Of a stretch of DNA of 64,000 nucleotides, positions 5,878 to 60,650 are shown in pieces. The stretch is from Deltaproteobacteria bacterium. GTDB taxonomy: Bacteria > Desulfobacterota > BSN033 > UBA1163. Every line of letters starts with the position of its first letter. Position 1 is the stretch's first letter. The notes below the pieces were generated by a model, which was not told the DNA's origin, did not search any database, and worked only from the letters and a program-made list of their open reading frames with translations. The stretch covers positions 1,582 to 65,581 of the forward strand of contig JAGVBT010000120.1 of assembly GCA_020059605.1 (NCBI GenBank). The letters are read 5' to 3'. Position numbers and translations under genes: made by a program.

Positions 5878-6546
5878 TCAATGCCTTACCCTTTGTTCCC
5901 TCTTCTTCTCCTGTATCGTGCGATCCAGTATCCCCCGATGGATGACCCGTCCATCGGGGTCCGCACTGATTGCCTTCAGGTAGTAATGCTCCGCTTTCGC
6001 CCCTTCCCCGATCTTCTCATAGCAGTCGCCCATCAGATTCAGGGCATCTTTGAAAGTGGGAAGATATTCAATGATTTCCTCCAGCGTGTTGATGGCGGCA
6101 TAATATCGCCTTAATTTCCAGTAGCAGACCGCCAGCCAGTAGTGCCCCTGGTAGTGCTTGGGGTTGATGTGAACGACCGTCTCATAATGAGGAACGGCCT
6201 TTTCAAACATCCTTCTTCGAAAGTAGAGCCCTCCGAGGTTCATGAAAACGGGAATGGAATGCGGGTCTTTTCCTAATATCTCCTCGTAGGTCCGGGTCGA
6301 TTGATCCGTCAGGCCGGCCTGGTCATACGCATTGGCCTTTCCAAAAAGGTAATTGAAGCGATGCTCCTCTCTTGAATGTTCCCTGAATATCACATCCCTG
6401 ATGAGGAACCAGAGGACAGGAATCATATGGAAGAGGTAGCGAAACAGTTTTAAGCTCATCCGTTTCTCCTCAAAACGTGCTGCTTTGGAATATTCATAAA
6501 TTCCAATCACCAAATTCCAAGCTCCAAATAAATTCCAATGACCCAA
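5878..6546 (-). CDS. TPR-repeat protein with N-terminal membrane anchor
   Basis: 222 aa; TPR-like repeats (AVCYWKLRRYYAAINTLEE, NLMGDCYEKIGEGAKAEHYYLKAI); hydrophobic N-terminal segment. Confidence 0.6.
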   Translation of the reverse strand: MGHWNLFGAWNLVIGIYEYSKAARFEEKRMSLKLFRYLFHMIPVLWFLIRDVIFREHSREEHRFNYLFGKANAYDQAGLTDQSTRTYEEILGKDPHSIPVFMNLGGLYFRRRMFEKAVPHYETVVHINPKHYQGHYWLAVCYWKLRRYYAAINTLEEIIEYLPTFKDALNLMGDCYEKIGEGAKAEHYYLKAISADPDGRVIHRGILDRTIQEKKREQRVRH

Positions 6547-6612
6547 TAACCAAACGTTGATTGTCGTTTGGAATTTGGATATTGGATATTATTTGGTTAT
6601 TGGTGCTTGGTA
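6487..6612. repeat. TTCCAA/TTGGAA-family (B) palindromic repeat, copy 1
   Basis: ccaaattccaagctccaaataaattccaatgacccaataaccaaa ... tttggaatttggatattggatattatttggttattgg (inverted arms). Confidence 0.7.
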
Positions 6613-6630
6613 ATTGGTTATTCTTCTTCC

Positions 6631-7725
6631 TTATACACTAAACCGGAAGCGGATGATATCTCCATCCTGAACGAGATACTCTTTCCCTTCTGACCGGAGA
6701 AGGCCCCTCTCCTTTGCGGCATGTTCGGATCCGCAGATTATAAATTCATTGAATGGAATGACCTCCGCGCGGATGAATCCCCGCTCCATATCGCTATGGA
6801 TCTTTCCCGCGGCCCTGGGAGCGGAAGTGCCCCGGGTAACAGTCCAGGCTTTTAACTCGGAACTGACCGTGGTATAAAATGTGACAAGTTCGAGAGTCTC
6901 GTAACCCACCCGGATCAACCTCTCCAAGCTTGACCCTTCCAGGCCCAGTTCCTTTCTGAATTCCTCCCGTTCCTCCTCCTTCAACTCTGCGATTTCCGCC
7001 TCCAGGTCGCCGCAGATGACCACCACCCTGGATCCGGCTTTTTGGGCCCATCCTGTCATTACTCTCAGGCAGGTACCATCTCCTCTCAGCTCCTCTTGAT
7101 CCACATTGGCCACATAAAAGACCGGTTTTGAAGTGAGAAGATGAAGATCCTCGAAAATGGCTTTCTTTTCGCCGTGATAATGAAGTTTCCCTGCTTCCTG
7201 CCCCCTGTTCAAGAAGGCCTGCACCTCCCGATAGACGTCTAACTCCAGACCGCTTTCCTTGGCGCCGACCCGGTGCAGTTTCTCCGTCTTAGCCATCCTC
7301 TTTTCCAGCGCCTGGAGATCGGTCAGGATAAGTTCCGTATTCACGACCTCAATGTCCCTGATCGGATCGAGGGAACCGAAGTCATGCGCAACATTTCTGT
7401 TCTCAAAGCATCGGACGGTGTGGGCAATCGCATCCACATTCCGGATGTGATCTAAGAATTGATTCCCCAATCCCTCTCCCTTGCTCGCGCCCTTGACCAA
7501 TCCGGCAATGTCGAAGAATTCGAGCGTGGTCGGGATTACTTTTTGTGGATGGAGCCGTCCGGCCAGATCCTCCAGCCTTTTATCCGGGACAGGGACAATG
7601 CCCAGGTTGGGCTGGATGGTACAGAAACGGTAGTCCGCAACTTCTGCCCCGGCTGCAGTGAGGGCGTTGAAGATGGTCGACTTCCCCGCATTGGGAAGGC
7701 CAACGATTCCGCAACGAAAACCCAT
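6631..7725 (-). CDS. ychF: Ribosome-binding ATPase YchF (Obg-family GTPase)
   Basis: MGFRCGIVGLPNAGKSTIFNALT P-loop and a TGS-like C-terminus; start moved to the internal ATG at 7725, which has a GAAGGGTGA RBS; the longer track ORF reads through the upstream repeat element. Confidence 0.9.
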   Translation of the reverse strand: MGFRCGIVGLPNAGKSTIFNALTAAGAEVADYRFCTIQPNLGIVPVPDKRLEDLAGRLHPQKVIPTTLEFFDIAGLVKGASKGEGLGNQFLDHIRNVDAIAHTVRCFENRNVAHDFGSLDPIRDIEVVNTELILTDLQALEKRMAKTEKLHRVGAKESGLELDVYREVQAFLNRGQEAGKLHYHGEKKAIFEDLHLLTSKPVFYVANVDQEELRGDGTCLRVMTGWAQKAGSRVVVICGDLEAEIAELKEEEREEFRKELGLEGSSLERLIRVGYETLELVTFYTTVSSELKAWTVTRGTSAPRAAGKIHSDMERGFIRAEVIPFNEFIICGSEHAAKERGLLRSEGKEYLVQDGDIIRFRFSV

Positions 7726-7741
7726 CTTGTCACCCTTCGTT

Positions 7742-7925
7742 AAATCCGAATATCGAATATCGAAATTCGAAACAATGACCAAAATTCGAATCTCAAATGA
7801 CCCAAACTCATTTTTTAAGATGTGACATTTTGAATTTTGAACATTTGAAATTCGGATTTGTTTCGAATTTCGCTTGCCTTCGCCGAAGCGGCTTCGCGCA
7901 GGCAGGTGCTTCGAGTTTCGAATTT
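7742..7925. repeat. TTCGAA-rich palindromic repeat element, family A (gene-less MITE-like copy)
   Basis: Left arm aaatccgaatatcgaatatcgaaattcgaaacaATGACCAAAATTCGAATCTCAAATGACCC; right arm gaaattcggatttgtttcgaatttcg plus a GC hairpin gccttcgccgaagcggcttcgcgcaggcagg; arms are inverted repeats; related copies at 13636, 22840, 27846, 41925, 56199 and 56622. Confidence 0.7.
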
Positions 7926-8019
7926 AAGTTTTTTATGGATTTTTTCCATATTATTTGTATAATAAAACGTTGAGAAAATAAAGCCCTACAGTGGAAATCT
8001 CCGGAGGGAGGAGGAAATC

Positions 8020-8895: not shown

Positions 8896-9024
8896 AGGAC
8901 ATTGGAATAATGGAAGGGTGGAAGAATGGAATAATGGGTTTATTCCACTATTCCATCCTTCCAATATCAAAGCGAATTTTGGTTTTCATCAATCCGCATT
9001 CCGCAATCCGAAATCCGAAATCAG
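8896..9024. repeat. Palindromic repeat, TTCCAAT/ATTGGAA family (C) fused to a short family-A fragment (gcaatccgaaatccgaaatcag)
   Basis: ggaataatggaagggtggaagaatggaataatggg ... ttccactattccatccttccaat inverted arms, read directly. Confidence 0.55.
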
Positions 9025-11090
9025 AAGAGTGAGACGAGCCACTGGTGGATGACAAGGATCATCGGACCGAAGACCAACGAGACAACGGTCATCAATTTCA
9101 AGAGGATGTTCATTGACGGACCGGAGGTGTCCTTGAAAGGATCGCCCACCGTATCGCCCACGACAGCGGCCTTGTGAGTATCCGACCCCTTCCCTCCCAG
9201 GTTTCCTTCCTCAATCCATTTCTTTGCATTGTCCCAGGCTCCTCCGGCATTGGCCATCTGTAGCGCAAGGGGAACGCCTGTTGCAAGAGAACCCAACAGC
9301 ATTCCCGCCAGCGCCTCCGGACCGAGGATACTTCCCAGAACAACGGGAATGGCTACGGCCGTTACTCCGGGGGCAACCATCTCCTTTAGCGCGCCAGCTG
9401 TCGTGATGTCAACGCACCGGGCATATTCGGCCCGCGCTGTGCCTTCCATCAATCCTTTGATCTCCCTAAACTGCCTCCGCACCTCTTCCACCACGCTGAA
9501 GGCGGCCCTTCCCACGGCCATCATCGTTGCCCCGGCAAAGTAGTAGGGAATGACGGCGCCGATAAAGACGCCTGCCACAATCTTATAACCTCCTGCCGCA
9601 CTCATGATGTCAATCGAAGTCAGTCCCATCACCTGAGTATAAGAGAGAAAAAGGGCCAGGGCGGTCAATGCGGCAGATCCAATGGCAAAACCCTTTCCGA
9701 CAGCAGCCGTCGTATTCCCGGCGGCATCCAGAGAATCGGTGATCTTCCGGATCTCCTTGCCCATATGCGCCATCTCTGCAATACCCCCGGAATTATCCGC
9801 AATGGGTCCATAGGCGTCCACGGAGACAACCATGCCGGTGATAGCCAGCATCCCGATGGCTGCCAGGGCGATGCCGAAGAAACCGGCCAGATTAAAGGAG
9901 ATAAGGATGGCTATTCCGATGACCATCAGAGGGATAATGGTGCTCCGGCAGCTCAGTGCAAATCCGTGGATGATCGTTGTAGCTGCCCCTGTGATGCTTG
10001 CCTTGGCCAGGGCCTCGACCGACTTTCCCGAGGTATAGTAAAACGCTGTCCACCCGATCACCATCCCTGACACAATGCCTGAAAATGTGGCCAGGAAATA
10101 GGAGAGGTCTTTTCCGAACATTCCCAAGACCAGGATGAGCGCGCCGATGGAATAGAAGATCGCGCTCGAGAGCGTTCCATTATTGAGCGCTTTCCTGGGA
10201 TCGGATTTCTCGTCCGTCCGGACAAAGAAAACTCCAATGATGGAGGCAATAATCCCAATGGCATAGAGGATGAAACAAAGAATGACTCCCTTGATTTTAA
10301 GTTCAGGTGTCGGGAGCGTGGTCACGGCAATGATCACTCCGGAGAGAAGCGAACCGATATAAGATTCATAAAGGTCCGCACCCATGCCGGCCACATCGCC
10401 GACATTGTCTCCCACGTTGTCGGCAATCGTTGCCGGATTTCTCGGGTCGTCCTCCGGAATTCCCGCTTCGACCTTTCCCACCAGGTCTGCGCCTACATCG
10501 GCCGCCTTTGTATAAATCCCTCCTCCTACTCTGGCAAAGAGGGCGACGGAACTTGCGCCCATGCTGAAACCGGCAATGATTCCCGCTGCCTCGGTCATCT
10601 TCTCCACCAATCCGCCCGGTGCAAGCTGTCCTAAAATCAAAAATACAACGGAGAAAACTAAAAGTCCCAATCCAACAACAGTGAGCCCCATCACCGCGCC
10701 GCCCGGAAAGGCGACGGACAAGGCCTGATTAAACCCCCGGGTGGCCGCCTGGGCAGTTCGAGTGTTGGCCCTCGTGGCTATGCTCAATCCTACATATCCG
10801 GCCACCAGGGAGCAGGCCGCTCCTACCAGGTAGGAAAGAGCGGTCAATAGGGAGAAATGCCATCCCTGACCTTTGAGCCCGACGGCCAACAGGATCGCCA
10901 CAATAATCGCAAAGATGGAGATGGCCCTATATTCCCTTTTTAAGAAAGCCATCGCCCCTTCATGGACCGCATCGGAAATGGCAACCATCTGAGGTGTTCC
11001 GGGGTCCTGCCTCATCACCTTTCTGGCCGTGAAGACGACAAAAACCAAAGCAAAAATTCCTGTCAGCGCTGCAACTCCAATCCAGACCAT
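9021..11090 (-). CDS. hppA: K+-stimulated membrane pyrophosphatase (H+/Na+-translocating PPase)
   Basis: 689-aa polytopic ORF with hallmark V-PPase motifs ([36 protein letters not shown]). Confidence 0.95.
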
Positions 11091-11092
11091 AA

Positions 11093-11674: not shown

Positions 11675-11680
11675 ATTCGA

Positions 11681-12325: not shown

Positions 12326-12386
12326 CTCTTTCTCCTTGTTTTTCCCATTCCTCCCGCCAAGAGATTGAAGGAGAGGGATTTTTTAT

Positions 12387-13346: not shown

Positions 13347-13422
13347 TCTTCTTCTCACCTTCGAACCCCCTGGTCCCCGAACGCGGAAAGGGGAAGGCTT
13401 TCCGCTTCCGTCGAGGCATAAA

Positions 13423-13444
13423 AATTGGCTGGGGTGGGAGGATG
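13423..13444. repeat. 22-bp direct repeat of the tRNA-Gln 3' end (aaattggctggggtgggaggat); att-like scar
   Basis: Identical 22-mer at 13547-13568, covering the tRNA 3' terminal 18 nt plus 4 nt of flank; 103 bp separate the copies. Confidence 0.6.
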
Positions 13445-13550
13445 TGCTCGATCGCTCCGCTCCCTCCGCCTCCCTCCGGTCGCCGAACCTGATTCCCCTC
13501 CTCACGTCGGGGAAAGGTTCTCATCCCCCTTACCACTCATTTCAATAAAT

Positions 13551-13625: not shown

Positions 13626-13635
13626 ATCTTAAACC

Positions 13636-13692
13636 ATAAATCCGAAATTCGAATATCGAATCTCGAAACAAATCCGAATGTTCAAATGACAA
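13636..13692. repeat. Family A repeat, half-length copy
   Basis: ataaatccgaaattcgaatatcgaatctcgaaacaaatccgaatgttcaaatgac. Confidence 0.6.
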
Positions 13693-13733
13693 AGGAGTAG
13701 AGGCTTTCATGTTCGGATACCGATAATATCTCT

Positions 13734-15265: not shown

Positions 15266-15451
15266 CTGGCTCCTCCTTTATCTTTTTTCAATATCATAGG
15301 AGAGGTTATTATTTTTTTCAAGGGGTTTGTCGGATCGGGAGGATGGAACGATTCGTTCCCATTAAAAAAGGAAGGGGATTGGGTATGTCGGACGAATGGG
15401 ACATCCCTTCCCCCGCCTTCATCGAGGAGACAAAGGCAGGGAAAGGGTGAT

Positions 15452-15670
15452 TTATGCCGTCTCCACGCTTTTCACCTCCGGGACCTGTTGCTTTAGAACT
15501 TTCTCCACGCCCATTTTCAGGGTCATCTGGGACATGGGGCACCCTCCGCAGGCTCCGGTTAGCCTCACCTTCACCACACCATCAACCACATCGACCAATT
15601 CGATATCGCCTCCATCCGCCATAAGGGCGGGGCGAATCTTTTCCAATGCCTTCTCCACGCTTTCTCTCAT
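15452..15670 (-). CDS. NifU-like Fe-S cluster assembly domain protein (Nfu type)
   Basis: 72 aa; GGDIELVDVVDGVVKVRLTGACGGCPMS CxxC motif of the NifU C-terminal domain. Confidence 0.8.
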   Translation of the reverse strand: MRESVEKALEKIRPALMADGGDIELVDVVDGVVKVRLTGACGGCPMSQMTLKMGVEKVLKQQVPEVKSVETA

Positions 15671-15761
15671 CTCTTTTCACCTCCTCCCAGGCTCGCCATC
15701 AATACCCTTCTCCTGTTTCTTTTCCTAAAATTATCATAACACAAAATATTGGAATGTCGAC

Positions 15762-15800
15762 AAAATAAAAAGCCCTCCCTGAGGGGAAGGCCTTCGGCAG
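15762..15800 (-). terminator. Putative intrinsic terminator downstream of the Cys-rich gene pair
   Basis: Minus strand GCCTTCCCCTCAGGGAGGGC hairpin followed by TTTTTATTTTG. Confidence 0.45.
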
Positions 15801-15835
15801 AACATTCCATTCTCTTCCTGGACTTCCGTCTTATC

Positions 15836-16027
15836 TTAATTCCCCTTTTTCTCCATCTCCTCCAGTTTCGACCGGAGATGCTTCTTGAGGGCATCGGGTC
15901 TCTCGCAGAACAACACATCTCCCTCGCAGGTCGCACTGCCACTGTCGATATCACAGTAGCCGATTCCTTTCCCCATGCCTAAACTGTCCGGTTTTCTAAA
16001 TAGGGGACATTTCTTGCCCTCTACCAT
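15836..16027 (-). CDS. Small cysteine-rich protein (63 aa), paralog 2; C-x19-C-x9-C-x7-C
   Basis: MVEGKKCPLFRK...GYCDIDSGSATCEGDVLFCERPD; its ATG overlaps the upstream paralog's stop (ATGGTAG); same Cys spacing as paralog 1. Confidence 0.6.
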   Translation of the reverse strand: MVEGKKCPLFRKPDSLGMGKGIGYCDIDSGSATCEGDVLFCERPDALKKHLRSKLEEMEKKGN

Positions 16028-16218
16028 CTTTGGCCTCCTTCCCGTCTCTTTTCCTCCAGCAAATGTTTTCTGAAGAGATCGACCTTCTTGCATGCATGGA
16101 TATTACCCCTGCAGACCATCCAGTCATGGTCAAGATCGCAATACCCCCTGAAGCCACTCCCTTTCGAATGGCCGTACTCTCGATAAAAAGAACATTTCTT
16201 AAAACCCAACACTTTCAT
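16021..16218 (-). CDS. Small cysteine-rich protein (65 aa), paralog 1; C-x19-C-x9-C-x7-C
   Basis: MKVLGFKKCSFYREYGHSKGSGFRGYCDLDHDWMVCRGNIHACKKVD; AAGGGAG RBS 4 nt before the ATG. Confidence 0.6.
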   Translation of the reverse strand: MKVLGFKKCSFYREYGHSKGSGFRGYCDLDHDWMVCRGNIHACKKVDLFRKHLLEEKRREGGQRW

Positions 16219-16248
16219 CTCCCTTGAGCTGTAATATAAAAACCAAGT

Positions 16249-16279
16249 AAAAAACCCGTGGATGGAGGAATACCACGGG
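16249..16279 (-). terminator. Intrinsic terminator or attenuator hairpin 20 nt upstream of the RBS of Cys-rich paralog 1
   Basis: Minus strand CCCGUGG-UAUUCCUCCAU-CCACGGG followed by UUUUUU. Confidence 0.6.
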
Positions 16280-16725
16280 TTGACGGTCCAATCTCCACTT
16301 CGGCAACCCGGCTATCCAAGGGATTTGCTATTGCAAATCCACCAAAGACCACCTTTAGTTTTTAGCCAAAGGTAAGAAACCAATTTTGGCTTCTTCTTGG
16401 ACCCGTGCCTGCACGCCTTAGTGCCAGCCAATATTAGGCAGGTATTTCGGCTTGCAAGCACTCCTGCATCCTGTTTTGCCTGACTGCTGTAGTCAGGCGT
16501 TTCGGCACGCAGGCGTGGCTTTCCGTCCCACGATTACTCGTGGTTTGGCTTTATCGAAAATTTTAAGATATTTCTTTTGGTGAGATAATCAGCAATTATA
16601 ATGCCAATCCGGCATTCAGGATGAAACCTTTTGAATTCAATAGAGTATGTTGAAGAGTGGAATTTCAGGAAGAATGAATACTGCCTTTTTTTGTTTCCCT
16701 AAGAAAAATTTTTACTGAGGAAGGA
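16280..16725 (-). ncRNA. ORF-free structured leader or sRNA candidate; possible riboswitch or attenuator for the Cys-rich gene pair
   Basis: About 450 nt with no ORF of 60 aa or more in any frame in a genome that is otherwise densely coding; several stable hairpins (AGCCAAA...TTTGGCT, CCTGACT-n5-AGTCAGG, GGATTTGC-n4-GCAAATCC); ends in the terminator hairpin directly upstream of an RBS. Confidence 0.35.
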
Positions 16726-17127: not shown

Positions 17128-17140
17128 TGAGAATTGGGAA

Positions 17141-18151: not shown

Positions 18152-18179
18152 GTGGGGGCAATTCATGAATTGCCCCCAC
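18152..18179. repeat. 28-bp perfect palindrome GTGGGGGCAATTCATGAATTGCCCCCAC (copy 1) in the divergent trxB/ndk promoter region
   Basis: Read directly; a second copy sits at 44311-44338 with a symmetric flank change. Confidence 0.8.
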
Positions 18180-18666: not shown

Positions 18667-18689
18667 GCCTCCCTCCCTCTTCCCTCTCC

Positions 18690-18936
18690 CTCGGGAGGCT
18701 GTGTCGTAATAGCAGGCAAAGGGGGAGAGGCAGTCAGGTTCCAAAGATTTAGAATGCGGGTCTTTTAGGTGATGGGAAATCGTTGTTTGTATAAAATCGA
18801 ATGTTATCATATGCTTGGTACGCTTGAATCCGAACGGCTAAAGGTTACCGCTCTAAATCTTTTCCACCCGACCGCCCCTCTCCCTTTTCAAAAAGTCGGT
18901 TTTTTCATATTACGACACAGTCTCCGAGGGGAGAGG
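18690..18936. repeat. About 250-bp intergenic segment bounded by 29-bp imperfect inverted repeats (cctctccctcgggaggctgtgtcgtaata / tattacgacacagtctccgaggggagagg)
   Basis: The inverted repeats match at about 26 of 29 positions; the interior is AT-rich with no convincing ORF. Confidence 0.45.
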
Positions 18937-22334: not shown

Positions 22335-22354
22335 AACAGAAAAACGCATGGCGC

Positions 22355-22909
22355 ATGGAGCAAGGCGATTTTTTTAAAGAAACAATGAAGTTCATCGCTG
22401 ATCGCACGCTCGGGAAGCTGGCAAAAGGGTTGAGGATGCTCGGTTATGATACCGTTTATTACCGGGGCGATGATTTTCATCAACTCATCCATATCGCCCG
22501 CCAGGAGGGACGAATCCTCGTGACCCGGAATACGAAACTGGCCCTTAGACGACCGAAGGATCATATCATTACCCTCACAGAGAACCATCCTTCCCGGCAA
22601 CTCGAGGAGTTAATTCGAAAAGGGAAACTCTCTTTCAACGACGAGGTCCCTTTTACCCGATGCATCCCCTGTAATGGACCGCTCGAGGATATCCCCCGGG
22701 ATCAGGCAGAAGGCAAGGTCCCGGATTTTATCTTTCATCAGCAAAAAGATTTTTTCCACTGCCGCCGGTGCGATAAGATCTACTGGCAGGGATCACACCT
22801 GGGCAACATGCAGAAACGCGTCAAAGAACTATTACATATTAAATCCGAAAATCGAAATTCGGGCGAAGCTTCCCGAAGGGATCAATTCGAAACAATCTCT
22901 AATGATTAA
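22355..22909 (+). CDS. Mut7-C RNase domain protein (PF01927-like) with a C-terminal zinc ribbon
   Basis: FIADRTLGKLAKGLRMLGYDT...; CPCNGPL...CRRCDKIYWQGSH zinc ribbon; the C-terminal 20 aa are encoded by repeat-element sequence. Confidence 0.7.
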   Translation: MEQGDFFKETMKFIADRTLGKLAKGLRMLGYDTVYYRGDDFHQLIHIARQEGRILVTRNTKLALRRPKDHIITLTENHPSRQLEELIRKGKLSFNDEVPFTRCIPCNGPLEDIPRDQAEGKVPDFIFHQQKDFFHCRRCDKIYWQGSHLGNMQKRVKELLHIKSENRNSGEASRRDQFETISND

Positions 22910-23026
22910 ATCTCAAATGTTCGAAACAAATCAGTTTGAGACATTTGGATTTCGGAAATTCGAATTTGTTTCGCCTGCCTGCCGGTAGGCAGGGATTTCG
23001 ACATTCGGATTTCGAATTTTTAAAAG
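22840..23026. repeat. Family A repeat element, gene-less copy
   Basis: aaatccgaaaatcgaaattcggg...caattcgaaacaatctc...ggatttcggaaattcgaatttgtttcg plus a GC hairpin gcctgcctgccggtaggcaggg and ttcgacattcggatttcgaattt. Confidence 0.7.
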
Positions 23027-23027
23027 C

Positions 23028-24163: not shown

Positions 24164-24218
24164 TATGAATAACCAAATTCCAAGCTCCAAATAAATTCCA
24201 ATAACCAAAATTTCAAAT
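24164..24218. repeat. TTCCAA-family (B) repeat, copy 2
   Basis: aaccaaattccaagctccaaataaattccaataaccaaaa, nearly identical to 6506-6556. Confidence 0.7.
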
Positions 24219-24219
24219 A

Positions 24220-27193: not shown

Positions 27194-27280
27194 GAAGTCT
27201 CATCGGCCGGCGTTTGTGGCGGAAGTATAAAACAGTTCGATTGACTTTTCCATAGAAAATGTTAATCTCATTGCCAACCT

Positions 27281-27886
27281 ATGCTTGGCGACAGACTCGG
27301 ACACCGGCTCGACCCCTTTCTTTACAATGCCTATAAAAAACTCTTCGGGGAAAATGGGAATCCCAATCTCTTCACCCTGCTCGGATTCTTCTCCACCCTT
27401 GGCGCTTCCCTTCTCGTCCTGGAAGGGTTCTGGTTGTTCGCAGGCTTGTTCCTAATCGTCTCAGGGCTTTTTGATCTTCTCGATGGAGTGATCGCCAGAA
27501 ATTTAGGGAAAGCGACGGTTTTCGGAAGCTTTTTCGATTCGGTGATGGACCGGTATTCGGACCTTCTCTTCCTTCTGGCTCTCATTATCCATGGCCTGGG
27601 AGAGGAAAACGCTGCCCTGGTTGTTCTCGCTTCCGTGGTCGCCATCGGAACCGCCCTCATCCCCTATGTCCGGGCAAAAGCGGAATCCCTCCAAATCCCC
27701 TGCCACACAGGCCTGATGGAAAGAGCGGAGAGGATCATTCTTCTCTCCCTTGGAACTCTGTTGAACCGGATAGAACCGGTCCTCTGGATCCTCGCCGTCC
27801 TCACCCACGTCACGGTCCTCCAGAGAATCTATCATGTCTGGAAGAAAATCCGAAATTCGAATATCGAAATTCGAAACAAATTCTAA
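27281..27886 (+). CDS. CDP-alcohol phosphatidyltransferase family protein
   Basis: Exact D-G-x2-A-R-x8-G-x3-D-x3-D motif (DLLDGVIARNLGKATVFGSFFDSVMD); the C-terminal tail is encoded by the repeat element. Confidence 0.8.
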   Translation: MLGDRLGHRLDPFLYNAYKKLFGENGNPNLFTLLGFFSTLGASLLVLEGFWLFAGLFLIVSGLFDLLDGVIARNLGKATVFGSFFDSVMDRYSDLLFLLALIIHGLGEENAALVVLASVVAIGTALIPYVRAKAESLQIPCHTGLMERAERIILLSLGTLLNRIEPVLWILAVLTHVTVLQRIYHVWKKIRNSNIEIRNKF

Positions 27887-27988
27887 ATTCAAATTTTTCA
27901 AATTCAAAACCATCTCTATCTGTTTGGGTCATTTTGATTTTGAACATTTGTGCTTGTTTCGAAATTCGCATTTCGAGCTTCGAATTTA
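27846..27988. repeat. Family A repeat element, gene-less copy
   Basis: gaaaatccgaaattcgaatatcgaaattcgaaacaaattc ... gggtcattttgattttgaacatttg ... gtttcgaaattcgcatttcgagcttcgaattt. Confidence 0.7.
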
Positions 27989-29050: not shown

Positions 29051-29107
29051 AAGATGAACCAGGGGGAAAGGGTTCGAGGATTTTAGGATTCGAGTGTAAA
29101 TTCAAAA

Positions 29108-29175
29108 AAGAATTTGTCTTGAACGGGTTTACACCTCGACCCCTTGAACCCTGGACCCCTGGATTCCTTTCTTGC
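29108..29175. repeat. TTCAAGG/CCTTGAA-family (E) repeat
   Basis: gggtttacacctcgaccccttgaaccctggacccctggattcc; overlaps the RND pump 3' end and encodes its last 11 aa. Confidence 0.55.
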
Positions 29176-32274: not shown

Positions 32275-34952
<2,678 letters not shown>

Positions 34953-34961
34953 ATCACTTCT

Positions 34962-41756: not shown

Positions 41757-41924
41757 CAGCAATCTCCTTCAATTATCCTGAAATTTGACGTGCCAAATTC
41801 TTGCCAATCATCTTTAAGGCTTCGGATCTAACAAATCCGAAACCCGCATACCGACATCTTTATCCTGTTCAATCATGGTTGAAACCGAGCAAATCAAAAA
41901 CCACTTCCACACAAATTTAACAGG

Positions 41925-42035
41925 GCAGGCAAATTCGAATTTTCAACATTTCAATATCTTAAACTGTTATTGGTCTCGAACATTTGAAATTTGGTCATTT
42001 GGGATTGTTTCGTGTTTCGAATTTCGAATTTTGCT
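41925..42035. repeat. Family A repeat element, gene-less copy
   Basis: ggcaggcaaattcgaattttcaacatttcaat...gaacatttgaaatttggtcatttgggattgtttcgtgtttcgaatttcgaattttgcttgcc. Confidence 0.6.
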
Positions 42036-42040
42036 TGCCT

Positions 42041-43495
42041 TTAAACCACTTTCCTTCTCTCGCTCGAGGAAAGAATCTTCATCATCTCCCGGTATTTTGA
42101 AATCGTCCTTCGGGCAATATGGATATTTTTCTCCTTCAGGATCTGAACCAGCTTCTCATCGCTATGGGGCTTTCTCGGATCCTCCCGGACAATGATCTCC
42201 CGGAGCAAGCTCTTGACGCTTTCGGAAGCCATGGCGTCTCCTTGAATGGAGGGGATGCCGGCATTGAAGAAAAACTTCAGTTCATAGATCCCTTGGGGGG
42301 TATGCATATATTTATTGTTGGTCACCCGGCTCACGGTGGATTCGTGCATCTCGATATCCTCCGCCACATCCCGCAGGACAAGGGGCTTCAGATACTGGAT
42401 CCCCTGATCCAGAAAGTCCTTCTGAAATTTGACGATGCTTTGGGCCACCTTGTAAATGGTCCTCTGCCGTTGATCGATGCTCCGGATCAGCCAGAGGGCG
42501 GAACGCAGTTTCTCCTGGATATATTTTCGGTCATCCTGGTGAGATTGACGGCCCTCGGCGAGAATACGGCGGTAGTAGGAATTGACAACCAACCTGGGAA
42601 TTCCTTCGTCGTTCAGGGAGATCACGTATTCCCCCTCCATTTTGTAAACATACACATCGGGAGTGATGTCCTGGGCAACCTCGCCTCCATAAGCTCTTCC
42701 CGGTTTGGGCTCCAGCTTCGAGATCAGGGCGGCCGCTCGATTCACCCTTTCGAGGGAAACGCCTACCCGTTTCGCAATCGCCGGGAAGTTCCGGTTCTTC
42801 AACAGGGAAAGATGCTCTATCACGATCTTTTCCGCAATGGGGTCACGGATGGACAACTGATGCAACTGGATGAGAAGGCATTCCTTCAAATCCCTGGCCG
42901 CCACTCCGACGGGATCGAACTGTTGAATCTTTGGAAGGACCTTTTCCGCCATCTCAAGGGGAAAACCGGTCTCGGCGCTGATCTCCTCCAGGGACATCTT
43001 CAAATACCCGTCCTCATCCAGGTTTCCGATGATCCATATCCCGGTCTGTTTTTCTTCTTCGCTTAAGTAGGAAAGCTGGAGTTGCCAGCGGAGATGGTCG
43101 GAAAGGGTGGTGCTCTTGGTCAGGAAATTTTCAAAAGAAGGCCTCTCTTCGCCGTCCGCCTCCCTCGGTCCGGAAAGGGGGGCATGATTATAATTCTCAA
43201 GATAATTTTCCCAGTCGAACTCGTCGGACCCCTCTCCCTCTCCTTTCACTTCAATAGTATGCTCCGGACTCAATACCGGCTGCTCCGCCGCTGTTTCGTT
43301 TGTCCGTTCTTCTTCATCGGATGATTCCTTTCCTTCCTCGATCTCTTCGAGGAGCGGATTTTCGTTCATCTCCTGGCCGATCATGTCCACCAGTTCGAGC
43401 CGCGTCAACTGAAGAAGCCGGATCGCCTGCTGGAGCTGGGGAGTGATCACAAGTTGCTGAACAAGTTTGGGCGACTGTTTAAGCTCTAAAACCAT
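42041..43495 (-). CDS. rpoN: RNA polymerase sigma-54 factor
   Basis: N-terminal Gln/Leu-rich region, RpoN box ARRTISKYRE, HTH. Confidence 0.95.
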   Translation of the reverse strand: MVLELKQSPKLVQQLVITPQLQQAIRLLQLTRLELVDMIGQEMNENPLLEEIEEGKESSDEEERTNETAAEQPVLSPEHTIEVKGEGEGSDEFDWENYLENYNHAPLSGPREADGEERPSFENFLTKSTTLSDHLRWQLQLSYLSEEEKQTGIWIIGNLDEDGYLKMSLEEISAETGFPLEMAEKVLPKIQQFDPVGVAARDLKECLLIQLHQLSIRDPIAEKIVIEHLSLLKNRNFPAIAKRVGVSLERVNRAAALISKLEPKPGRAYGGEVAQDITPDVYVYKMEGEYVISLNDEGIPRLVVNSYYRRILAEGRQSHQDDRKYIQEKLRSALWLIRSIDQRQRTIYKVAQSIVKFQKDFLDQGIQYLKPLVLRDVAEDIEMHESTVSRVTNNKYMHTPQGIYELKFFFNAGIPSIQGDAMASESVKSLLREIIVREDPRKPHSDEKLVQILKEKNIHIARRTISKYREMMKILSSSERRKVV

Positions 43496-44310: not shown

Positions 44311-44338
44311 GTAGGGGCAATTCATGAATTGCCCCTAC
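44311..44338. repeat. 28-bp perfect palindrome GTAGGGGCAATTCATGAATTGCCCCTAC (copy 2) in the lptA-lptB intergenic spacer
   Basis: The 22-bp core is identical to copy 1 at 18152; the flank change is symmetric, so the palindrome is preserved. Confidence 0.8.
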
Positions 44339-45462: not shown

Positions 45463-45467
45463 AATAT

Positions 45468-45538
45468 AGTTCGGAGTTCGGAGCCTTTTATCTTTTTCTC
45501 CGAATACTCCGAACTACGAACTCATGACTCCGAACCAT
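45468..45538. repeat. TTCGGAG/CTCCGAA-family (D) palindromic repeat, copy 2
   Basis: atatagttcggagttcggagcc...tctccgaatactccgaactacgaactcatgactccgaacc. Confidence 0.65.
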
Positions 45539-46560: not shown

Positions 46561-49490
<2,930 letters not shown>

Positions 49491-50756: not shown

Positions 50757-50982
50757 AACAAAAAAAGGTCCATCCCCAATTTATCCCAATATCCCTCCAT
50801 TTTCAAGATTGGAGAAATAGCTTGGAGAAATGGCTTAATGGCTTAGTGGTGCATACAAAAAACAATGGGCAATGAACGATGACCAATAAATTCAAAAAAA
50901 ATCCTGTTAAGAGATTCGAGTAAACACGACCATACTCAAACTCTTAGACAGGAGCTTTCTAAAGGTCTTATGACGAAACCCC

Positions 50983-52510: not shown

Positions 52511-52587
52511 ATAGTGGGCAACTTAGTTTCCTACCTCTCCATAAGGATAATAAAATTTCTGTCAAATTAAGGGTCGAAAATATCTGG

Positions 52588-53337: not shown

Positions 53338-53339
53338 AA

Positions 53340-53375
53340 ATTGTAAATTTTAAATTGCAAATTGCAAAATCCATA
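53340..53375. repeat. AATTGCAA-core repeat (family F)
   Basis: aaattgtaaattttaaattgcaaattgcaaaatcc. Confidence 0.4.
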
Positions 53376-53409
53376 TTAAAACAAAAAGTACTCGAGTGTG
53401 GCAAAATAG

Positions 53410-56195: not shown

Positions 56196-56685
56196 AAATA
56201 AAAATTCGAAATCCGAATTTCGAAATCCGAAACAATCTCGAATGACCAAAACACAAAATTCAAAACCGTATGATTTAGAAGAACGAACTCCTCAATTTGC
56301 TAAAAATGTTAGGGCCTTCGTTAAAAAATTACCTAAAACTATATCAAATATTGAAGATATAAAACAACTTGTTAGGGCATCTGGTTCTGTTGGTTCGAAT
56401 TACATTGAGGCAAACGAGGCTCTCGGTAAAAAAGACTTTCTTCTAAGAATTAAAATATGTCGAAAGGAGGCCAAGGAAAGTCGATATTGGTTGAGGTTAA
56501 TTGACACCGATGCCAAATCTGATCTGGAAAATGAAAGAAAAGACTTGGAAAATGAAGCTACGGAGCTGATGAATATTTTTGGTTCAATTTTAAGAAAAAC
56601 AGAATAATATTAAACCATTTGGTGATTCGGATTTAGAAATTGTTTCGAGTTTCGATATTCGAATTTCGGATTTCTGGGGTTTAAC
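56196..56685 (+). mobile_element. Candidate composite insertion: a four-helix-bundle gene bounded by about 45-bp family-A inverted repeats, inserted between livH-like and livM-like genes
   Basis: Left arm 56199-56245 (gaaatccgaatttcgaaatccgaaacaatctcgaATGACC) and right arm 56622-56678 (ggatttagaaattgtttcgagtttcgatattcgaatttcggatttc) are inverted; the interior is about 35% GC against about 55% in flanking genes; the gene's first codons are part of the repeat consensus. Confidence 0.55.
56242..56607 (+). CDS. Four-helix-bundle protein (TIGR02436 / 23S rRNA intervening-sequence protein family; same family as DGR Avd accessory proteins)
   Basis: LVRASGSVGSNYIEANEALGKKDF...KEAKESRYWLRLI motifs characteristic of the family; 121 aa; low GC. 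Confidence 0.75.
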   Translation: MTKTQNSKPYDLEERTPQFAKNVRAFVKKLPKTISNIEDIKQLVRASGSVGSNYIEANEALGKKDFLLRIKICRKEAKESRYWLRLIDTDAKSDLENERKDLENEATELMNIFGSILRKTE

Positions 56686-57732
56686 ATGAGGCCTTGCGGG
56701 ACGTTTGACGAGCGTTATGGCCAGGACATGGCGATTTTTCGAATCAAAAGGCATTGGGGACTTCTGATCGGAGCGCTCGTTCTTCTCTACATCTTCCCCC
56801 TCTTCGGTTCCTATTATTTCATCAGCCTGATCAATCATCTCAGCATCACCATTATCATCGTCCTGGGCCTTCAACTCGTCAGCGGTTACTGTGGCCAGAT
56901 CTCCTTTGGGCAGGCTGCTTTCATGGCCATCGGCGCTTACACCTCGGCCATCCTCACCGGAAAGGCCGGCCTCTCCTTCTTTATTGCGCTTCCCATTTCA
57001 GGGATCGTTGCAGGGTTAATCGGATTGGGCGGGGGCGCTCCTTCCCTCCGCATCAAGGGCTTTTATCTCGCCATGGCGACCATCGCTATCCATTTTGTTG
57101 TGATGTGGTTGATCCCTCACCTTGAGATCACAGGAAAGACGCAGGGGTTGCATCCACCCGCACCACAGATCGGAAGCTTTGTCTTCGACAGTGATGAAAG
57201 AATTTACTACATCATCATTACCGTGATGCTCCTGATGGCCTATGGCGCCCGAAACATGGTCCGGACCCGCATCGGCAGGGCTTTTGTGGCTATCCGCGAC
57301 AACGACCTGGCCGCCGAGGTAATGGGGATCGAGCTCTACCGTTATAAACTTCTTGCTTTCTTCATCTCCTGTTTTTATGCGGGGATCGCTGGTTCGTTAT
57401 GGGCTCACTGGATTCAAGTGGTTCACCCTGAACAATTCACGCTGCTCCATGCCCTGAATTACATTGGGATGCTCATCATTGGTGGCGGGGGGAGCATTCC
57501 GGGAGTCTTTTTCGGTGTCATTTTCCTCCGCCTTCTTGAGGAGGGAGTCATGTTTGCGGCTCCATTGTTGGCAGCCGTTTTCCCCTGGATCGGGATCCAT
57601 CCGGCAGCATCCATGAGCGTTTCAGTATTCGGCATCGTCCTTATTATCTTCTTAATCTTTGAACCAAGAGGGCTCGCCCATCGCTGGGAAATCTTTAAGT
57701 CCTCTTATCGGCTCTATCCATTTTCACACTAA
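56686..57732 (+). CDS. Liv-type ABC transporter permease (LivM-like)
   Basis: 348-aa polytopic LivM-family protein; start may be the internal ATG at 56728. Confidence 0.85.
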   Translation: MRPCGTFDERYGQDMAIFRIKRHWGLLIGALVLLYIFPLFGSYYFISLINHLSITIIIVLGLQLVSGYCGQISFGQAAFMAIGAYTSAILTGKAGLSFFIALPISGIVAGLIGLGGGAPSLRIKGFYLAMATIAIHFVVMWLIPHLEITGKTQGLHPPAPQIGSFVFDSDERIYYIIITVMLLMAYGARNMVRTRIGRAFVAIRDNDLAAEVMGIELYRYKLLAFFISCFYAGIAGSLWAHWIQVVHPEQFTLLHALNYIGMLIIGGGGSIPGVFFGVIFLRLLEEGVMFAAPLLAAVFPWIGIHPAASMSVSVFGIVLIIFLIFEPRGLAHRWEIFKSSYRLYPFSH

Positions 57733-57789
57733 CTCCCTCTATTAAAAGAGGGGCAAGCAATGAAAGGAGGTGATTTGAAAATTAATAGA

Positions 57790-57890
57790 TAGATTGGAAG
57801 GGTTCCAGGGGTCAAGGATTCAAGGCTTCCAGTCATCCGAACATAAAATTTAAAACTCGAACCCCAGAATCCTCGAATCCTTGAACCCTT
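57790..57890. repeat. TTCAAGG/CCTTGAA-family (E) palindromic repeat
   Basis: gggttccaggggtcaaggattcaaggc ... gaatcctcgaatccttgaaccc. Confidence 0.6.
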
Positions 57891-57911
57891 TTAAAACGAA
57901 AGGAGGTTACG

Positions 57912-59117: not shown

Positions 59118-59137
59118 AAAGAAAGGGGGGAAAATTG

Positions 59138-59632
59138 ATGAACTCTTTCAAAAAGATAATCATCGTTTTTAGTCTTTTAATGTTCCTTTTGCCGTTTGCG
59201 GCCTGTAGCACTCTGTTCCCACCCCCGAAGCCAAAAGCCACGGTCGCTGTAACTCCTGAAAAAGTGGAACTCGCATTCCCGGGCATCTTGAGGGTTCCTA
59301 TCGTGTTCACAGGGACGGGGTGGAAACCCAAAGAGATGGTGGTTGTGGATCTGGTTCTCCCTTCGGGTGTACAAATACAGGGGGTAAAGCCTGGAGAGGA
59401 TGTCGGGATCGCCTACGGTGAGGCGGATGAGGCAGGCAATTTCAAGGGAGAGGTCCCTGCCACAGCAAAATTGAACACCCTCTTTCGAGTGGGATGGACT
59501 CCAATTCTGACACCGGATCCCAAAACGCTCAATCCCATTCCTACGGGAATCTATACGATCAAGGCCTCGGGGGCGGACTCCGGAGCGCTCGCCACAACGA
59601 CATTGGAGTTTGTGGCACCCATCAAGAAATAG
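59138..59632 (+). CDS. Lipoprotein of unknown function inside the ABC operon
   Basis: GAAAGGGGGG RBS, lipobox LLPFAAC; 164 aa beta-rich. Confidence 0.6.
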   Translation: MNSFKKIIIVFSLLMFLLPFAACSTLFPPPKPKATVAVTPEKVELAFPGILRVPIVFTGTGWKPKEMVVVDLVLPSGVQIQGVKPGEDVGIAYGEADEAGNFKGEVPATAKLNTLFRVGWTPILTPDPKTLNPIPTGIYTIKASGADSGALATTTLEFVAPIKK

Positions 59633-59755
59633 GAAATTCTAAATTCGAGGCACCTGCCTGCGCGAAGCCCCGCCTCCAGAAGCCTAGGGGAGGGCAGGGG
59701 CTTCGGCATAGGCAGGCGAAACGCGATGTTGAAGTAGCCAAAGGTTGAGAAACCT

Positions 59756-60550
59756 ATGCTTCGCCTCAATAACATAGAAGTGATTTACAGTGATGTGATC
59801 CTGGTTCTGAAAGGGGTCTCCCTTGAGGTGCCCGATGGAAAGATCATCTCTCTCCTGGGCGCTAATGGCGCAGGGAAAACGACAACGCTCAAGGCTATTT
59901 CAGGGGTCCTCTATACGGAATTGGGCGATGTTACGGATGGAAGCATCGAGTTTGAAGGAGAGAGAATTGATGGTATGGCCCCCGAAGAGATTGTCCAGAT
60001 GGGGATTGTCCAGGTGATGGAAGGCCGCCGCATGTTCGAGCATCTCACGGTTGAGGAAAATCTTCGGGTGGGAGCCTATGCGCGAAAAGACAGGGAGGCC
60101 GTTTCAAAAGATCTCGGATCGGTTTATCGATATTTCCCAAGACTGAAAGATCTCAGGGGACATGTGAGCGGCTACCTTTCCGGCGGAGAAAGACAGATGC
60201 TGGTCATGGGGCGAGCCTTGATGTCGGATCCGAAGGTGATGCTTCTCGATGAACCCTCTCTGGGGCTCAGTCCCCTCCTCGTCAAAGAAATTTTTGAAAT
60301 GATCAAAAAGATCAACCATGAGGAGGGAACCTCCATCCTATTGGTGGAACAGAATGCGAAGATCGCTCTTTCCACATCGGATTATGGTTATATCATGGAA
60401 AATGGGCGGGTCGTTTTGGACGGCCCCTCTTCCAAATTAAGGGAAAACGAGGATATCAAGGAGTTTTACCTCGGGCTGAGCCAGGTCGGGAAAAGGAAAA
60501 GTTTCCGGGAGGTGAAACACTACCGAAGAAGAAAAAGGTGGCTATCTTAA
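59756..60550 (+). CDS. Liv-type ABC transporter ATP-binding protein (LivF-like)
   Basis: GANGAGKTTT Walker A, LSGGERQML signature. Confidence 0.9.
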   Translation: MLRLNNIEVIYSDVILVLKGVSLEVPDGKIISLLGANGAGKTTTLKAISGVLYTELGDVTDGSIEFEGERIDGMAPEEIVQMGIVQVMEGRRMFEHLTVEENLRVGAYARKDREAVSKDLGSVYRYFPRLKDLRGHVSGYLSGGERQMLVMGRALMSDPKVMLLDEPSLGLSPLLVKEIFEMIKKINHEEGTSILLVEQNAKIALSTSDYGYIMENGRVVLDGPSSKLRENEDIKEFYLGLSQVGKRKSFREVKHYRRRKRWLS

Positions 60551-60552
60551 TG

Positions 60553-60650
60553 ATAGGGTTCAAGGGGTCAAGGGGTCCAGGGTTCAAGTGTCCGTTAATC
60601 AATACAGTTTTTTGAATCCTTGAACCCTTGGCTCCTTGAACCCTTTGTTT
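60553..60650. repeat. TTCAAGG/CCTTGAA-family (E) palindromic repeat
   Basis: gggttcaaggggtcaaggggtccagggttcaag ... gaatccttgaacccttggctccttgaaccc. Confidence 0.65.

Follow-up and report, generated by a model that had tools for sequence, protein, structure and literature searches.

Hairpin repeats built from inverted tandem heptamer arrays, and the PF05635 gene enclosed by one of them

Introduction

What are the AT-rich palindromic repeats that recur between the genes of a Deltaproteobacteria bacterium, and to what kind of element do they belong? We address this question in a 64-kb stretch of its genome (Desulfobacterota; NCBI GenBank assembly GCA_020059605.1, contig JAGVBT010000120.1, positions 1,582 to 65,581), which we refer to as the window. 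An original prediction, made from the letters alone, had sorted the repeats into families A to F and suggested either a proliferating system of miniature inverted-repeat transposable elements (MITEs) or an array of protein-binding sites. The reading that we favour, with a probability of roughly 55%, is that they are selfish hairpin cassettes, MITE-like and at the same time resembling the intervening sequences (IVSs) of 23S rRNA, with inverted tandem arrays of 7- or 8-nt units as their ends. Central to it is one copy, A6, whose arms enclose a gene of the protein family PF05635.

A PF05635 gene between family-A arms

Family-A arms had been predicted at 56199 and 56622, and both are there. What had been missed is that the open reading frame (ORF) lying between these arms, at 56242-56607, is part of the element, and that family A is pan-bacterial. 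The closest solved structure to the 121-aa protein encoded is PDB 2RLD (E 1.6e-10), and its database homologues number more than 8000. The best 120 of them are 75-93% identical and carry the labels Deltaproteobacteria, Desulfobacterales, Nitrospirae, Aminicenantia, Planctomycetota, Phycisphaerae, Zixibacteria and Pseudomonadota. The gene is under purifying selection, with a dN/dS of 0.086 against L221 (L-numbers are our labels for loci and contigs in other genomes, whether relatives, cross-phylum family-A loci or plasmid loci), and from this value the protein is predicted to be functional. PF05635 homologues crystallise with five chains (2RLD) or are reported to be pentamers. The idea that PF05635 is a HEPN domain was dropped, the family going without mention in a survey of HEPN domains (PMC3710099).

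An arm-gene-arm cassette with the same arms is found in three other organisms (L203, L211 and L221), and the gene-in-loop arrangement also in L024, L032 and L100. Compared with L221, a relative at about 80% nucleotide identity, the A6 cassette (window 56220-56700 against L221 10000-10445) is 90-97% identical and has sharp boundaries, versus ~78% in the flanking host DNA. At third codon positions, the cassette gene is 79.5% identical and a flanking gene 53%.

The start of the gene, CGA-ATGACCAAAA, and the sequence that follows its stop codon, GTTTTGAACATTTGG, are the same sequences that make up the inner stem of the family-A copies without an ORF. Because these copies keep the start and post-stop sequences of the gene, they look like internal-deletion derivatives of the cassette. 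The full version of the cassette has the PF05635 gene in its loop, and family A is its MITE-like form that lacks the ORF. L056 is the only ORF-less copy that visibly retains the beginning of the gene, about 14 codons of it.

Two other routes were tried. The loops of family A, searched with blastx as decayed PF05635 genes, gave low-complexity noise only. The same protein in different genomic contexts would have been a proof of transposition, and proved uninformative because the proteins compared, P0057 and P0081, each occur in one genomic context across many samples.

Family A in at least ten phyla

We scanned the family-A 18-mer TATCGAAATTCGAAACAA against 185,579 species-representative genomes and obtained at least 120 loci, where ~17 are expected by chance (2 x 596 Gb / 4^18). 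These loci span at least 10 phyla, the candidate phyla radiation included. The hosts are Saccharibacteria, several Parcubacteria lineages, Gracilibacteria, Thermodesulfobacteriota, Planctomycetota, Aminicenantes, Acidobacteriota, Nitrospirota, Chloroflexota (Dehalogenimonas), Verrucomicrobiota, Bacteroidota, Omnitrophota and Gammaproteobacteria. Family A is pan-bacterial and not lineage-specific. Literature searches with family-A sequence strings returned unrelated primer matches only.

All matches have one architecture in common, (AAATYCG)n-AAACAA-...-AATGWYCAAAAC (loop) GTTTTG...-TTGTTTCG-(CGNATTT)n. The left arm consists of four or five AAATYCG units, AAACAA and two or three looser units that close with AATGWYCAAAAC; after a variable loop, the right arm is its inverse, with TTGTTTCG and then CGNATTT units. 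The conserved part amounts to ~150 nt (median length 147 nt), with a mean RNA folding energy of -44 kcal/mol. The arms are not strictly symmetrical, as TATCG stands opposite CGTGC in 58 of 75 copies, a conserved internal mismatch.

A profile built from foreign family-A arms only was then applied to the window, where it matched at 7741, 13637, 22840, 27846, 41974-42027 and 56202/56674 and nowhere else, recovering exactly the six family-A sites originally predicted.

Distant PF05635 genes also lie between arrays

A tblastn search against plasmids gave 25 records with distant PF05635 homologues, mostly cyanobacterial and all below 60% identity (28-47% among the matches listed). Thirteen of these distant homologues on plasmids (28-44% identity) were inspected, the hosts being Anabaena, five Nostoc, Planktothrix, Pseudanabaena, Euhalothece, Dolichospermum, Bernardetia, Chondrinema, Chlorohelix and Monoglobus. 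Tandem 7/8-mer arrays stand directly upstream of all thirteen genes and an inverse array downstream of at least 12; in Monoglobus (Bacillota) the downstream arm is unclear and the end of the ORF is not annotated. All nine cyanobacterial genes inspected lie between such arrays, and the remaining hosts with bracketed genes belong to Bacteroidota and Chloroflexota, with Monoglobus adding Bacillota. The background density of arrays is 0.3-0.4 per kb, so their presence at PF05635 genes is not a coincidence.

Each distant cassette has a flavour, that is a repeat unit, of its own: AGTAAAA, AATTCAA, AATCCCC/AATCGTA and GAAGGAT are examples, as are CAGTTAC/CACTGGT, GTAATTC/GGAATTT, GTCGGAR and GATTGCN. 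PF05635 genes in general lie between inverted heptamer arrays whose flavour is specific to each lineage. In 16 cassettes the two flanks pair with -22 to -93 kcal/mol. The distant genes are lone interlopers in operons (plasmid loci L222, L273, L224, L226, L274, L277 and L278), standing between cas2 and cas1 (twice), drmD and MmeI, hsdS and hsdR, helicase and methylase genes (twice), the adaptor and permease genes of a resistance-nodulation-division (RND) pump, and fabH and a peptidase gene. The 50-kb Nostoc flagelliforme plasmid pNFSY05 (L323) has twenty arrays of period 7 or 8 that include five inverted pairs of different flavours, only one of which encloses a PF05635 gene. Many flavours with one gene is also what the window has.

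Arrays and hairpins of the window

The sequences described in the original prediction do stand at the positions given for them. Tandem Repeats Finder, run on the whole window, gave 24 merged arrays with periods of 7, 8, 14 or 16, of which 22 lie mostly in intergenic DNA (5,660 nt scored, 8.8% of the window). Segment-shuffled intergenic DNA yielded a mean of 1.8 arrays and a maximum of 6, so the intergenic excess over chance, on which the original prediction depended, holds within the window. Its claim that nearly every gap is filled was overstated: elements occupy 17 of the 34 gaps of at least 40 nt. They lie between protein-coding or tRNA genes, in gaps that contain promoters as well as at 3' ends.

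An inverted-repeat scan found an inverted partner array 5-420 nt away for most arrays. Twelve of the 16 elements fold as long imperfect hairpins with stems of 30-60 bp (z -3.5 to -6.7 versus dinucleotide-preserving shuffles), and the other four are unpaired (8985-9030, 24164-24219 and 53338-53372) or degenerate (13636-13722). The repeat unit is a degenerate tandem 7-mer in families A, B, D and F and an 8-mer in C and E; a 7-9-mer that varies only in a TTCNNA centre, as had been proposed, is not what the units are. Among the six families we could detect no sequence likeness apart from that of B to A, and the A profile matches none of B to F. Family B reads like family A with each CG turned to CC in one arm and to GG in the other, so that pairing is preserved. 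The near-identical 45-mer reported for the two B sites is present in both.

Some arrays supply the last residues and stop codons of genes, as predicted for Mut7-C (22355-22909), the CDP-alcohol transferase (27281-27886) and the RND pump (29129-); the array-encoded tail of the pump is also present in L123, another relative at about 80% nucleotide identity. Coordinates of all elements are given in Table 1.

Table 1. Array elements of the window and a riboswitch (z, folding energy against dinucleotide-preserving shuffles; MFE, minimum free energy)
Feature	Position	Strand	Remarks
B1 hairpin, inverted heptamer arrays AAATTCC/AAGCTCC ... GGAATTT/GGTGCTT	6487-6626	.	From ychF stop to start of TPR-protein gene; MFE -46.3 kcal/mol, z -5.4
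A1 family-A hairpin	7742-7925	+	Divergent gap ychF / DAC-domain gene; z -5.0, with side hairpin
A1 arm profile matches	7741-7806 (+), 7828-7872 (-)		Right arm interrupted by GC mini-hairpin 7873-7906
C1 hairpin of 8-mer arrays TGGAAGAA / TTCCATCC	8899-8970	.	Convergent genes; 28 nt, 86% complementary; z -4.2
C2 unpaired heptamer array CAATCCG x 4.7	8985-9030	.	No hairpin, z +1.2
A2 solo or degenerate family-A arm	13636-13722	+	GHMP-kinase gene / tRNA-Gln gap; weak fold, z -1.3
A2 arm profile match	13637-13695		E 1.4e-11
c-di-GMP-I riboswitch	16462-16559	-	39.9 bits vs gathering score 35
Short heptamer array CGCATGG x 3.3	22345-22367	.	Directly upstream of Mut7-C; copy number varies between strains
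A3 family-A hairpin	22840-23022	+	Encodes last 24 codons and stop of Mut7-C; z -5.5
A3 nested GC mini-hairpins	22862-22884 and 22974-22993		
B2 unpaired family-B array	24164-24219	.	No hairpin; 45-mer near-identical to B1
A4 family-A hairpin	27846-27987	+	Convergent CDP-alcohol transferase / ispG (gcpE) genes; z -3.6
E1 hairpin of 8-mer arrays GGGTTCGA/GGATTCGA ... CCTTGAAC/CCTGGACC	29068-29172	.	One arm encodes RND-pump C-terminal tail; z -3.5
D1 hairpin, heptamer arrays AGTTCGG / CTCCGAA	34879-34957	.	metK-like / ahcY-like genes; z -5.1
A5 family-A-like hairpin, outer clamp GGCAGGCAAA / TTTGCTTGCC	41917-42046	.	rpoN / hpf gap; profile match 41974-42027; z -3.8
D2 family-D hairpin	45466-45537	.	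kdsD-like / lptC genes; z -3.7
F1 unpaired heptamer array AAATTGC/AAATTGT x 4.4	53338-53372	.	Tandem-repeat scan
A6 complete family-A cassette: left arm, PF05635 gene, right arm	56199-56680	+	Flanked by two ABC-permease genes; longest inverted repeat in window (41 nt, 83% complementary, 390 nt apart)
A6 arm profile matches	56202-56267 (+) and 56612-56674 (-)		
PF05635 gene (23S rRNA intervening-sequence protein family, four-helix bundle, Avd-like), 121 aa	56242-56607	+	Pfam E 3.7e-13
E2 family-E hairpin	57796-57892	.	z -3.8
Short A-like heptamers GAAATTCTAAATTCG, then 68-nt GC-rich hairpin of GCCTGC...GCAGGC type	59633-59740	.	z -2.6
E3 family-E hairpin	60552-60647	.	Convergent genes; z -6.7

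Turnover at orthologous gaps

Syntenic contigs of relatives, gathered by a metagenome scan with IspG together with exact look-ups, lie at ~99.7%, 89%, 80% and 70% nucleotide identity to the window. The nearest, L270, belongs to NCBI assembly GCA_020062685.1 and matches the window at 99.67% identity over 17,962 nt, and all five elements of the shared 18 kb are present in it. The single indel between the two is one 7-nt CGCATGG unit of the array at 22345-22367. Arrays gain and lose single units.

At greater distances whole elements differ. In the gap 3' of gcpE the A element is retained at 89% identity (L271/L272); further out, its content is of A, B, AACGATG, AGTGCCTA or CAAATGT flavour, or it is empty (L143). 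The gap 5' of gcpE has E in the window and L123, and D in L271/L272, L124 and L128. Similarly, E3 (gap 60551-60648) is replaced by a family-A hairpin in L221, the family-D element in gap 34866-34961 by a family-E hairpin in L123, and A3 in the Mut7-C 3' gap by a different, unrelated repeat in L123. The gap of B2 is filled in L123 by a composite of other flavours, that of E2 in L221 by unrelated repeats, and that of the hairpin at 59633-59740 in L221 by an array hairpin of CAAATGT flavour. One gap that is empty in the window (59118-59134) is filled in L221. The F1 array and the A6 cassette are common to the window and its ~80% identical relative, with different unit variants in the orthologue of F1 in L221. 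In the composite gap of L140 half of an E element lies beside a complete D, which suggests insertion into existing elements. The presence/absence polymorphism that had been named as a check was thus found in the syntenic contigs: gaps differ in family or are empty between relatives.

A widespread palindromic repeat of another type, GTCATTCCGG...CCGGAATCCAG, occupies the L123 gaps orthologous to 22910-23027 and 27194-27280, where the window has a family-A element or nothing.

Smaller palindromes are nested in the family-A arms. Three GC-rich ones of 20-34 nt interrupt them at fixed positions (7873-7906, 22862-22884 and 22974-22993), and relatives with mini-hairpins in their family-A arms are L123, L136, L142, L159 and L221. 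At four unrelated genomic sites a mini-hairpin of the type GGCGAAGC...CCA directly precedes the last ATYCGAAACAA unit. Compensatory changes are seen in its stem (TCCC/GGGA versus GTCC/GGAC), and the orthologue of A4 in L123 contains it as a clean GC insertion of 21 nt. The other two recur verbatim at other gaps of relatives, and L142 has the sequence of the A1 mini-hairpin as well. The mini-hairpins give the impression of a further mobile layer, smaller still. A parallel is offered by the small dispersed repeats that Elhai and colleagues reportedly described in 2008 from within cyanobacterial heptamer arrays.

Flavours other than A were also sought among viruses. Exact strings for D, E-like, B and F match 27, 10, 6 and 37 IMG/VR viral contigs, respectively. 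Many of the D and some of the B and F matches are array hairpins, and several F, B and E matches are chance coding matches or unpaired arrays. Arrays of different flavours abut in viral contigs, for example AATGCGG beside AGTTCGG.

Other features of the window

The window has 52% G+C. By the labels of the best named IspG homologues, its host is an uncultured member of Thermodesulfobacteriota ("Deltaproteobacteria") that is Syntrophaceae-like. The stretch carries the ordinary housekeeping genes of this sediment bacterium, among them LIV-type ABC transporters, ychF, H+-pyrophosphatase, prs, ispG, an RND pump, metK, ahcY, pyrG and the cluster kdsD-lptCAB-rpoN-hpf-ptsN-rapZ. No rRNA genes were found in it. 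An Rfam search of the window gave no family at the gathering threshold that matches the array hairpins, and a relaxed search of A4 gave chance matches to plant microRNA hairpins only, far below threshold. The c-di-GMP-I riboswitch sits in a 1.46-kb gap (15266-16725) together with several small cysteine-rich ORFs.

Two copies of a perfect 22-nt palindrome, GGGGCAATTCATGAATTGCCCC, are present (18155-18176 and 44314-44335), each immediately beyond the 3' end of a gene on the minus strand. They are not a heptamer array and form a small family apart, either of repeats or of terminator-like sequences. A ~250-nt hairpin rich in GGGAGAGG/CCTCTCCC lies at 18683-18936, upstream of an rlmN-like gene. It is made by long inverted repeats, one nested in the other (29 nt at 86%; 36 nt at 81%), and L123 and L221 have similar palindromes, rich in GGGGGA/TCCCCC, as insertions in gaps. 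Upstream of a deacetylase-like gene, the gap contains two direct arrays at 50809-50849 (TTGGAGAAATAGC x 2.2; AATGGCTT x 2.6), both short and neither with an inverted partner.

Discussion

We consider the repeats slightly more probably than not to be selfish cassettes of one architecture, in which each end is a tandem 7/8-nt array and two inverted arrays allow the DNA strand or its transcript to fold into an imperfect stem of 30-60 bp. Families B to F would be sister cassettes or remnants of the same class, with protein-bearing masters that may be elsewhere or lost. The elements probably settle in intergenic spacers of operons and are co-transcribed; if RNase III cuts their stems, as it does those of the rRNA versions, they would be nearly neutral for the host. 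The PF05635 oligomer may recognise the tandem units, which would explain why arms are conserved together with the protein. Single copies such as A4 could have taken on a secondary, domesticated role, as a host RNA hairpin or a duplex binding array.

With respect to the proliferating MITE system originally suggested, much is in agreement: there are ORF-less A copies along with one that bears an ORF, orthologous gaps hold other families or nothing, and the elements have spread to unrelated genomes and viral contigs. On the other side, no target-site duplication was seen, and a transposase-encoding parent is lacking, the only gene borne by an element being that of PF05635. The suggested check for a cognate transposase came back empty, with no transposase, integrase, reverse transcriptase or REP-associated tyrosine transposase (RAYT; REP, repetitive extragenic palindromic) among the genes of the window or the syntenic contigs.

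Several observations weigh against selfish cassettes. Neither the window and the syntenic contigs nor 75 family-A ends revealed a mechanism of insertion, a target-site duplication or a catalytic protein; at these ends no consistent duplication is visible, the flanks are AT-rich and often start with TAAAT, and filled and empty sites are too diverged to align. We know of no catalytic or enzymatic activity of PF05635 proteins. The gene is present in 4 of the 120 cross-phylum family-A loci listed (~3%), and no copy of B, D, E or F in the contigs of relatives or viruses has one beside it, so it is by their architecture that these families are linked to the cassette class. Synonymous sites of the gene are saturated between phyla, which argues that the cross-phylum similarity of arms and protein is old and kept by selection rather than due to recent transfer. 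The two arms of family A show no unit-by-unit covariation (CTAA versus TTAG; Spearman 0.08). Tests of the RNA strand were inconsistent: the TATCG-first strand gives the better RNA fold in 46 of the 75 copies without an ORF, and the sense strand of the gene pairs better in 12 of 16 PF05635 cassettes (p = 0.08). Because these results contradict each other, we make no claim on action at the RNA or the DNA level. Finally, A4, its unique loop included, shares 93% identity with its orthologue in L123, versus 56% at third codon positions of gcpE, and conservation better than that of neutral sites could mean host function rather than selfishness. The excess conservation of A4 and A6 over their surroundings reflects either nucleotide-level constraint or an exchange more recent than the divergence of the host genes.

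Such host function is the core of the most serious alternative, which we nevertheless judge unlikely, namely that the elements are intercistronic RNA hairpins that benefit the host by processing, stabilising or terminating transcripts, as RNase III sites or protectors of 3' ends, with tandem build as a cheap way to a long stem. Besides the conservation of A4, this would suit the presence of some hairpin in the same gaps of most relatives, the position of elements exactly at gene ends inside conserved operons (kdsD-lptC and rpoN-hpf, for example), the compensatory stem changes in the GC side hairpin and the status of IVS stems as known RNase III substrates (PMC4990558). Termination fits poorly and intrinsic terminators were rejected, since the hairpins have no U-tract and terminator-like sites are not enriched (14 in the window scan versus 20.7 in shuffles), with none on a main stem and those inside elements confined to the small side hairpins of A3. 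In addition, one copy (7742-7925) occupies a promoter gap between divergent genes, orientation does not depend on which way transcription runs, half-arrays exist without a partner and some orthologous gaps are empty, as in L143 and at 59118-59134 in the window; the linked PF05635 gene and the conservation of sequence across phyla are left unexplained. Still less probable are arrays of duplex-DNA binding sites for a nucleoid-associated or global regulator of the IHF/HU type, although units of fixed period suit an oligomeric binder, promoter-containing gaps are occupied as well as 3' ends, and similar paired arrays of Geobacter metallireducens have been proposed to be bound by a regulator (PMC2700814). 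A single genome would require at least six different binders, one per unrelated flavour, and these flavours are swapped at orthologous sites of close relatives, which is unexpected of regulatory sites. The same flavours also occur in phage contigs and across phyla, and an inverted layout with variable spacer fits the folding of a strand better than duplex binding.

Origin in place by slippage, with arrays that later became palindromic by template switching and PF05635 genes that inserted into them, would account for the one-unit difference between strains, the variable unit number in Coxiella (PMC4990558), unpaired arrays and the mixed flavours of viral contigs. We regard it as very improbable, for it leaves unexplained the ~150 nt of non-repetitive family-A architecture common to many phyla, the full change of flavour at one gap between relatives of 89% identity and the sharp-edged excess identity of a whole cassette over its flanks. 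We give least credence to REP or REPIN elements moved by a RAYT or by an enzyme of IS200/IS605 type whose gene lies in another part of the genome. In favour of it, the elements form intergenic palindromes in multiple copies, often as inverted pairs, and by their arm profile all six family-A copies of the window share one orientation, which could hint at strand-specific transposition of single-stranded DNA. Across 102 cross-phylum loci, however, orientation was unrelated to GC skew (53 versus 49) or gene-strand bias (49 versus 53), so this lead was dropped. Moreover, no conserved GTAG-type REP head was found, the arms being tandem heptamers and not a 20-40-nt REP, a RAYT or IS200 gene is absent from the window and syntenic contigs, and the gene that actually travels with the arms is that of PF05635.

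We therefore return to selfish cassettes with a PF05635 gene, and to a broader and more speculative form of this reading. It is possible, though less likely than not, that all tandem-heptamer hairpins, from the short tandemly repeated repetitive sequences (STRRs) of cyanobacteria, the heptamer-bearing rRNA IVSs and the Geobacter sites to families A to F, are ends or remnants of one ancient pan-bacterial class of selfish cassettes with PF05635 as signature gene. A ring-shaped oligomer might then read one 7-8-nt unit per subunit, much as TRAP reads GAG repeats, and promote copying, possibly via RNA because PF05635 is kin to Avd, the partner of a reverse transcriptase. Cyanobacterial tandem heptamer arrays have been on record since 1990 and rRNA IVSs for about as long, and to our knowledge neither has an accepted origin, function or mechanism of mobility. 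No paper was found that connects tandem repeats with PF05635 or "four helix bundle protein" genes, nor, in the literature searched, one that links STRRs to PF05635 genes, and the connection appears to be undescribed. It turns an old descriptive puzzle into a testable question: does the PF05635 oligomer bind its own arrays and promote their spread? One flavour, moreover, is conserved in arms and protein together across at least ten phyla that include the candidate phyla radiation. The elements also matter in practice, as they alter the C-termini of genes, sit inside core and defence operons (cas1-cas2, hsdS-hsdR, RND pumps), break assemblies and cause spurious ORF extensions in annotation.

Comparison with known systems

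Like MITEs and other small palindromic repeats (Correia, RUP, ERIC, RPE, REPIN), the elements are mostly short, ORF-less, hairpin-forming and intergenic, have terminal inverted repeats, differ in presence between relatives with possible nested insertion, and extend reading frames as Rickettsia RPEs do. Unlike them, they have ends that are internally repetitive tandem 7/8-mers instead of unique terminal inverted repeats, have no transposase-encoding parent but an ORF-bearing relative that encodes PF05635 only, and include one pan-phylum family; a consistent target-site duplication was not visible at the 75 family-A ends.

Avd of the diversity-generating retroelements is a small oligomeric helical-bundle protein that works with nucleic acid and a reverse transcriptase. 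The protein of the A6 cassette belongs to PF05635, the family that matches Avd (PMC10053308), whereas no reverse transcriptase or template/variable repeat pair was found near any cassette examined.

In Geobacter metallireducens, of the same phylum-level group as our host, 53 inverted pairs of tandem 7-9-mers in three classes (24 + 21 + 8) have been described in intergenic DNA (Aklujkar et al. 2009; PMC2700814). The paired arrays, each of 3-5 tandem units (GTTGCTYN, TCTCCGTS, MTYCTGA), stand 85-115 bp apart, are absent from the sister species and were read as IHF/HU sites, the "class 1-3 putative global-regulator binding sites", as a proposal only (PMC2700814). Inverted pairs, variable spacer, intergenic position, multiple copies and several classes are shared with the elements here; the units differ from those of A to F, and no associated gene or cross-genome distribution was reported.

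The cyanobacterial STRRs resemble the elements in being tandem heptamers of several flavours, multicopy and located in intergenic spacers of co-transcribed operons. They too often form inverted pairs (five in 50 kb of the Nostoc plasmid), and small GC-rich palindromes are said to be nested in them. The STRR1-3 units of heterocystous cyanobacteria are CCCCAGT, TTGGTCA and CAACAGT, these heptamers reportedly going back to Mazel and colleagues in 1990. Spacers of the Nostoc hyp operon contain arrays of TTGTCAG, ATTGCGA and TAGGGGT (PMC2408588). By contrast, our host belongs to Thermodesulfobacteriota and has the units AAATYCG, AAATTCC, AGTTCGG, GGGTTCAA and others.

The 23S rRNA IVSs with an S23p/PF05635 ORF (Leptospira, Coxiella burnetii, Xanthomonas and others) have a long stem of terminal inverted repeats that encloses a ~120-aa four-helix-bundle ORF. 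ORF-less IVS hairpins exist as well, and IVSs are suspected of being selfish or mobile with no known mechanism. In Coxiella burnetii a 28-bp stem encloses the S23p ORF and contains 3-4 tandem GACAGAT units, the number varying between strains, with RNase III cutting at the first unit (PMC4990558). Of the copies here, only that at 56199-56680 has a PF05635 ORF in its loop, and the others lack one, as do some IVSs. IVSs sit in helix 25 or 45 of 23S rRNA, whereas the copies here lie between protein-coding or tRNA genes, in many copies and several flavours per genome, and excision by RNase III has been demonstrated for IVSs only. Since the window has no rRNA and its copies lie between genes, we class the elements as IVS-like rather than as IVSs. 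The present evidence connects cyanobacterial heptamer arrays, rRNA IVSs and Geobacter arrays through one gene family and one architecture.

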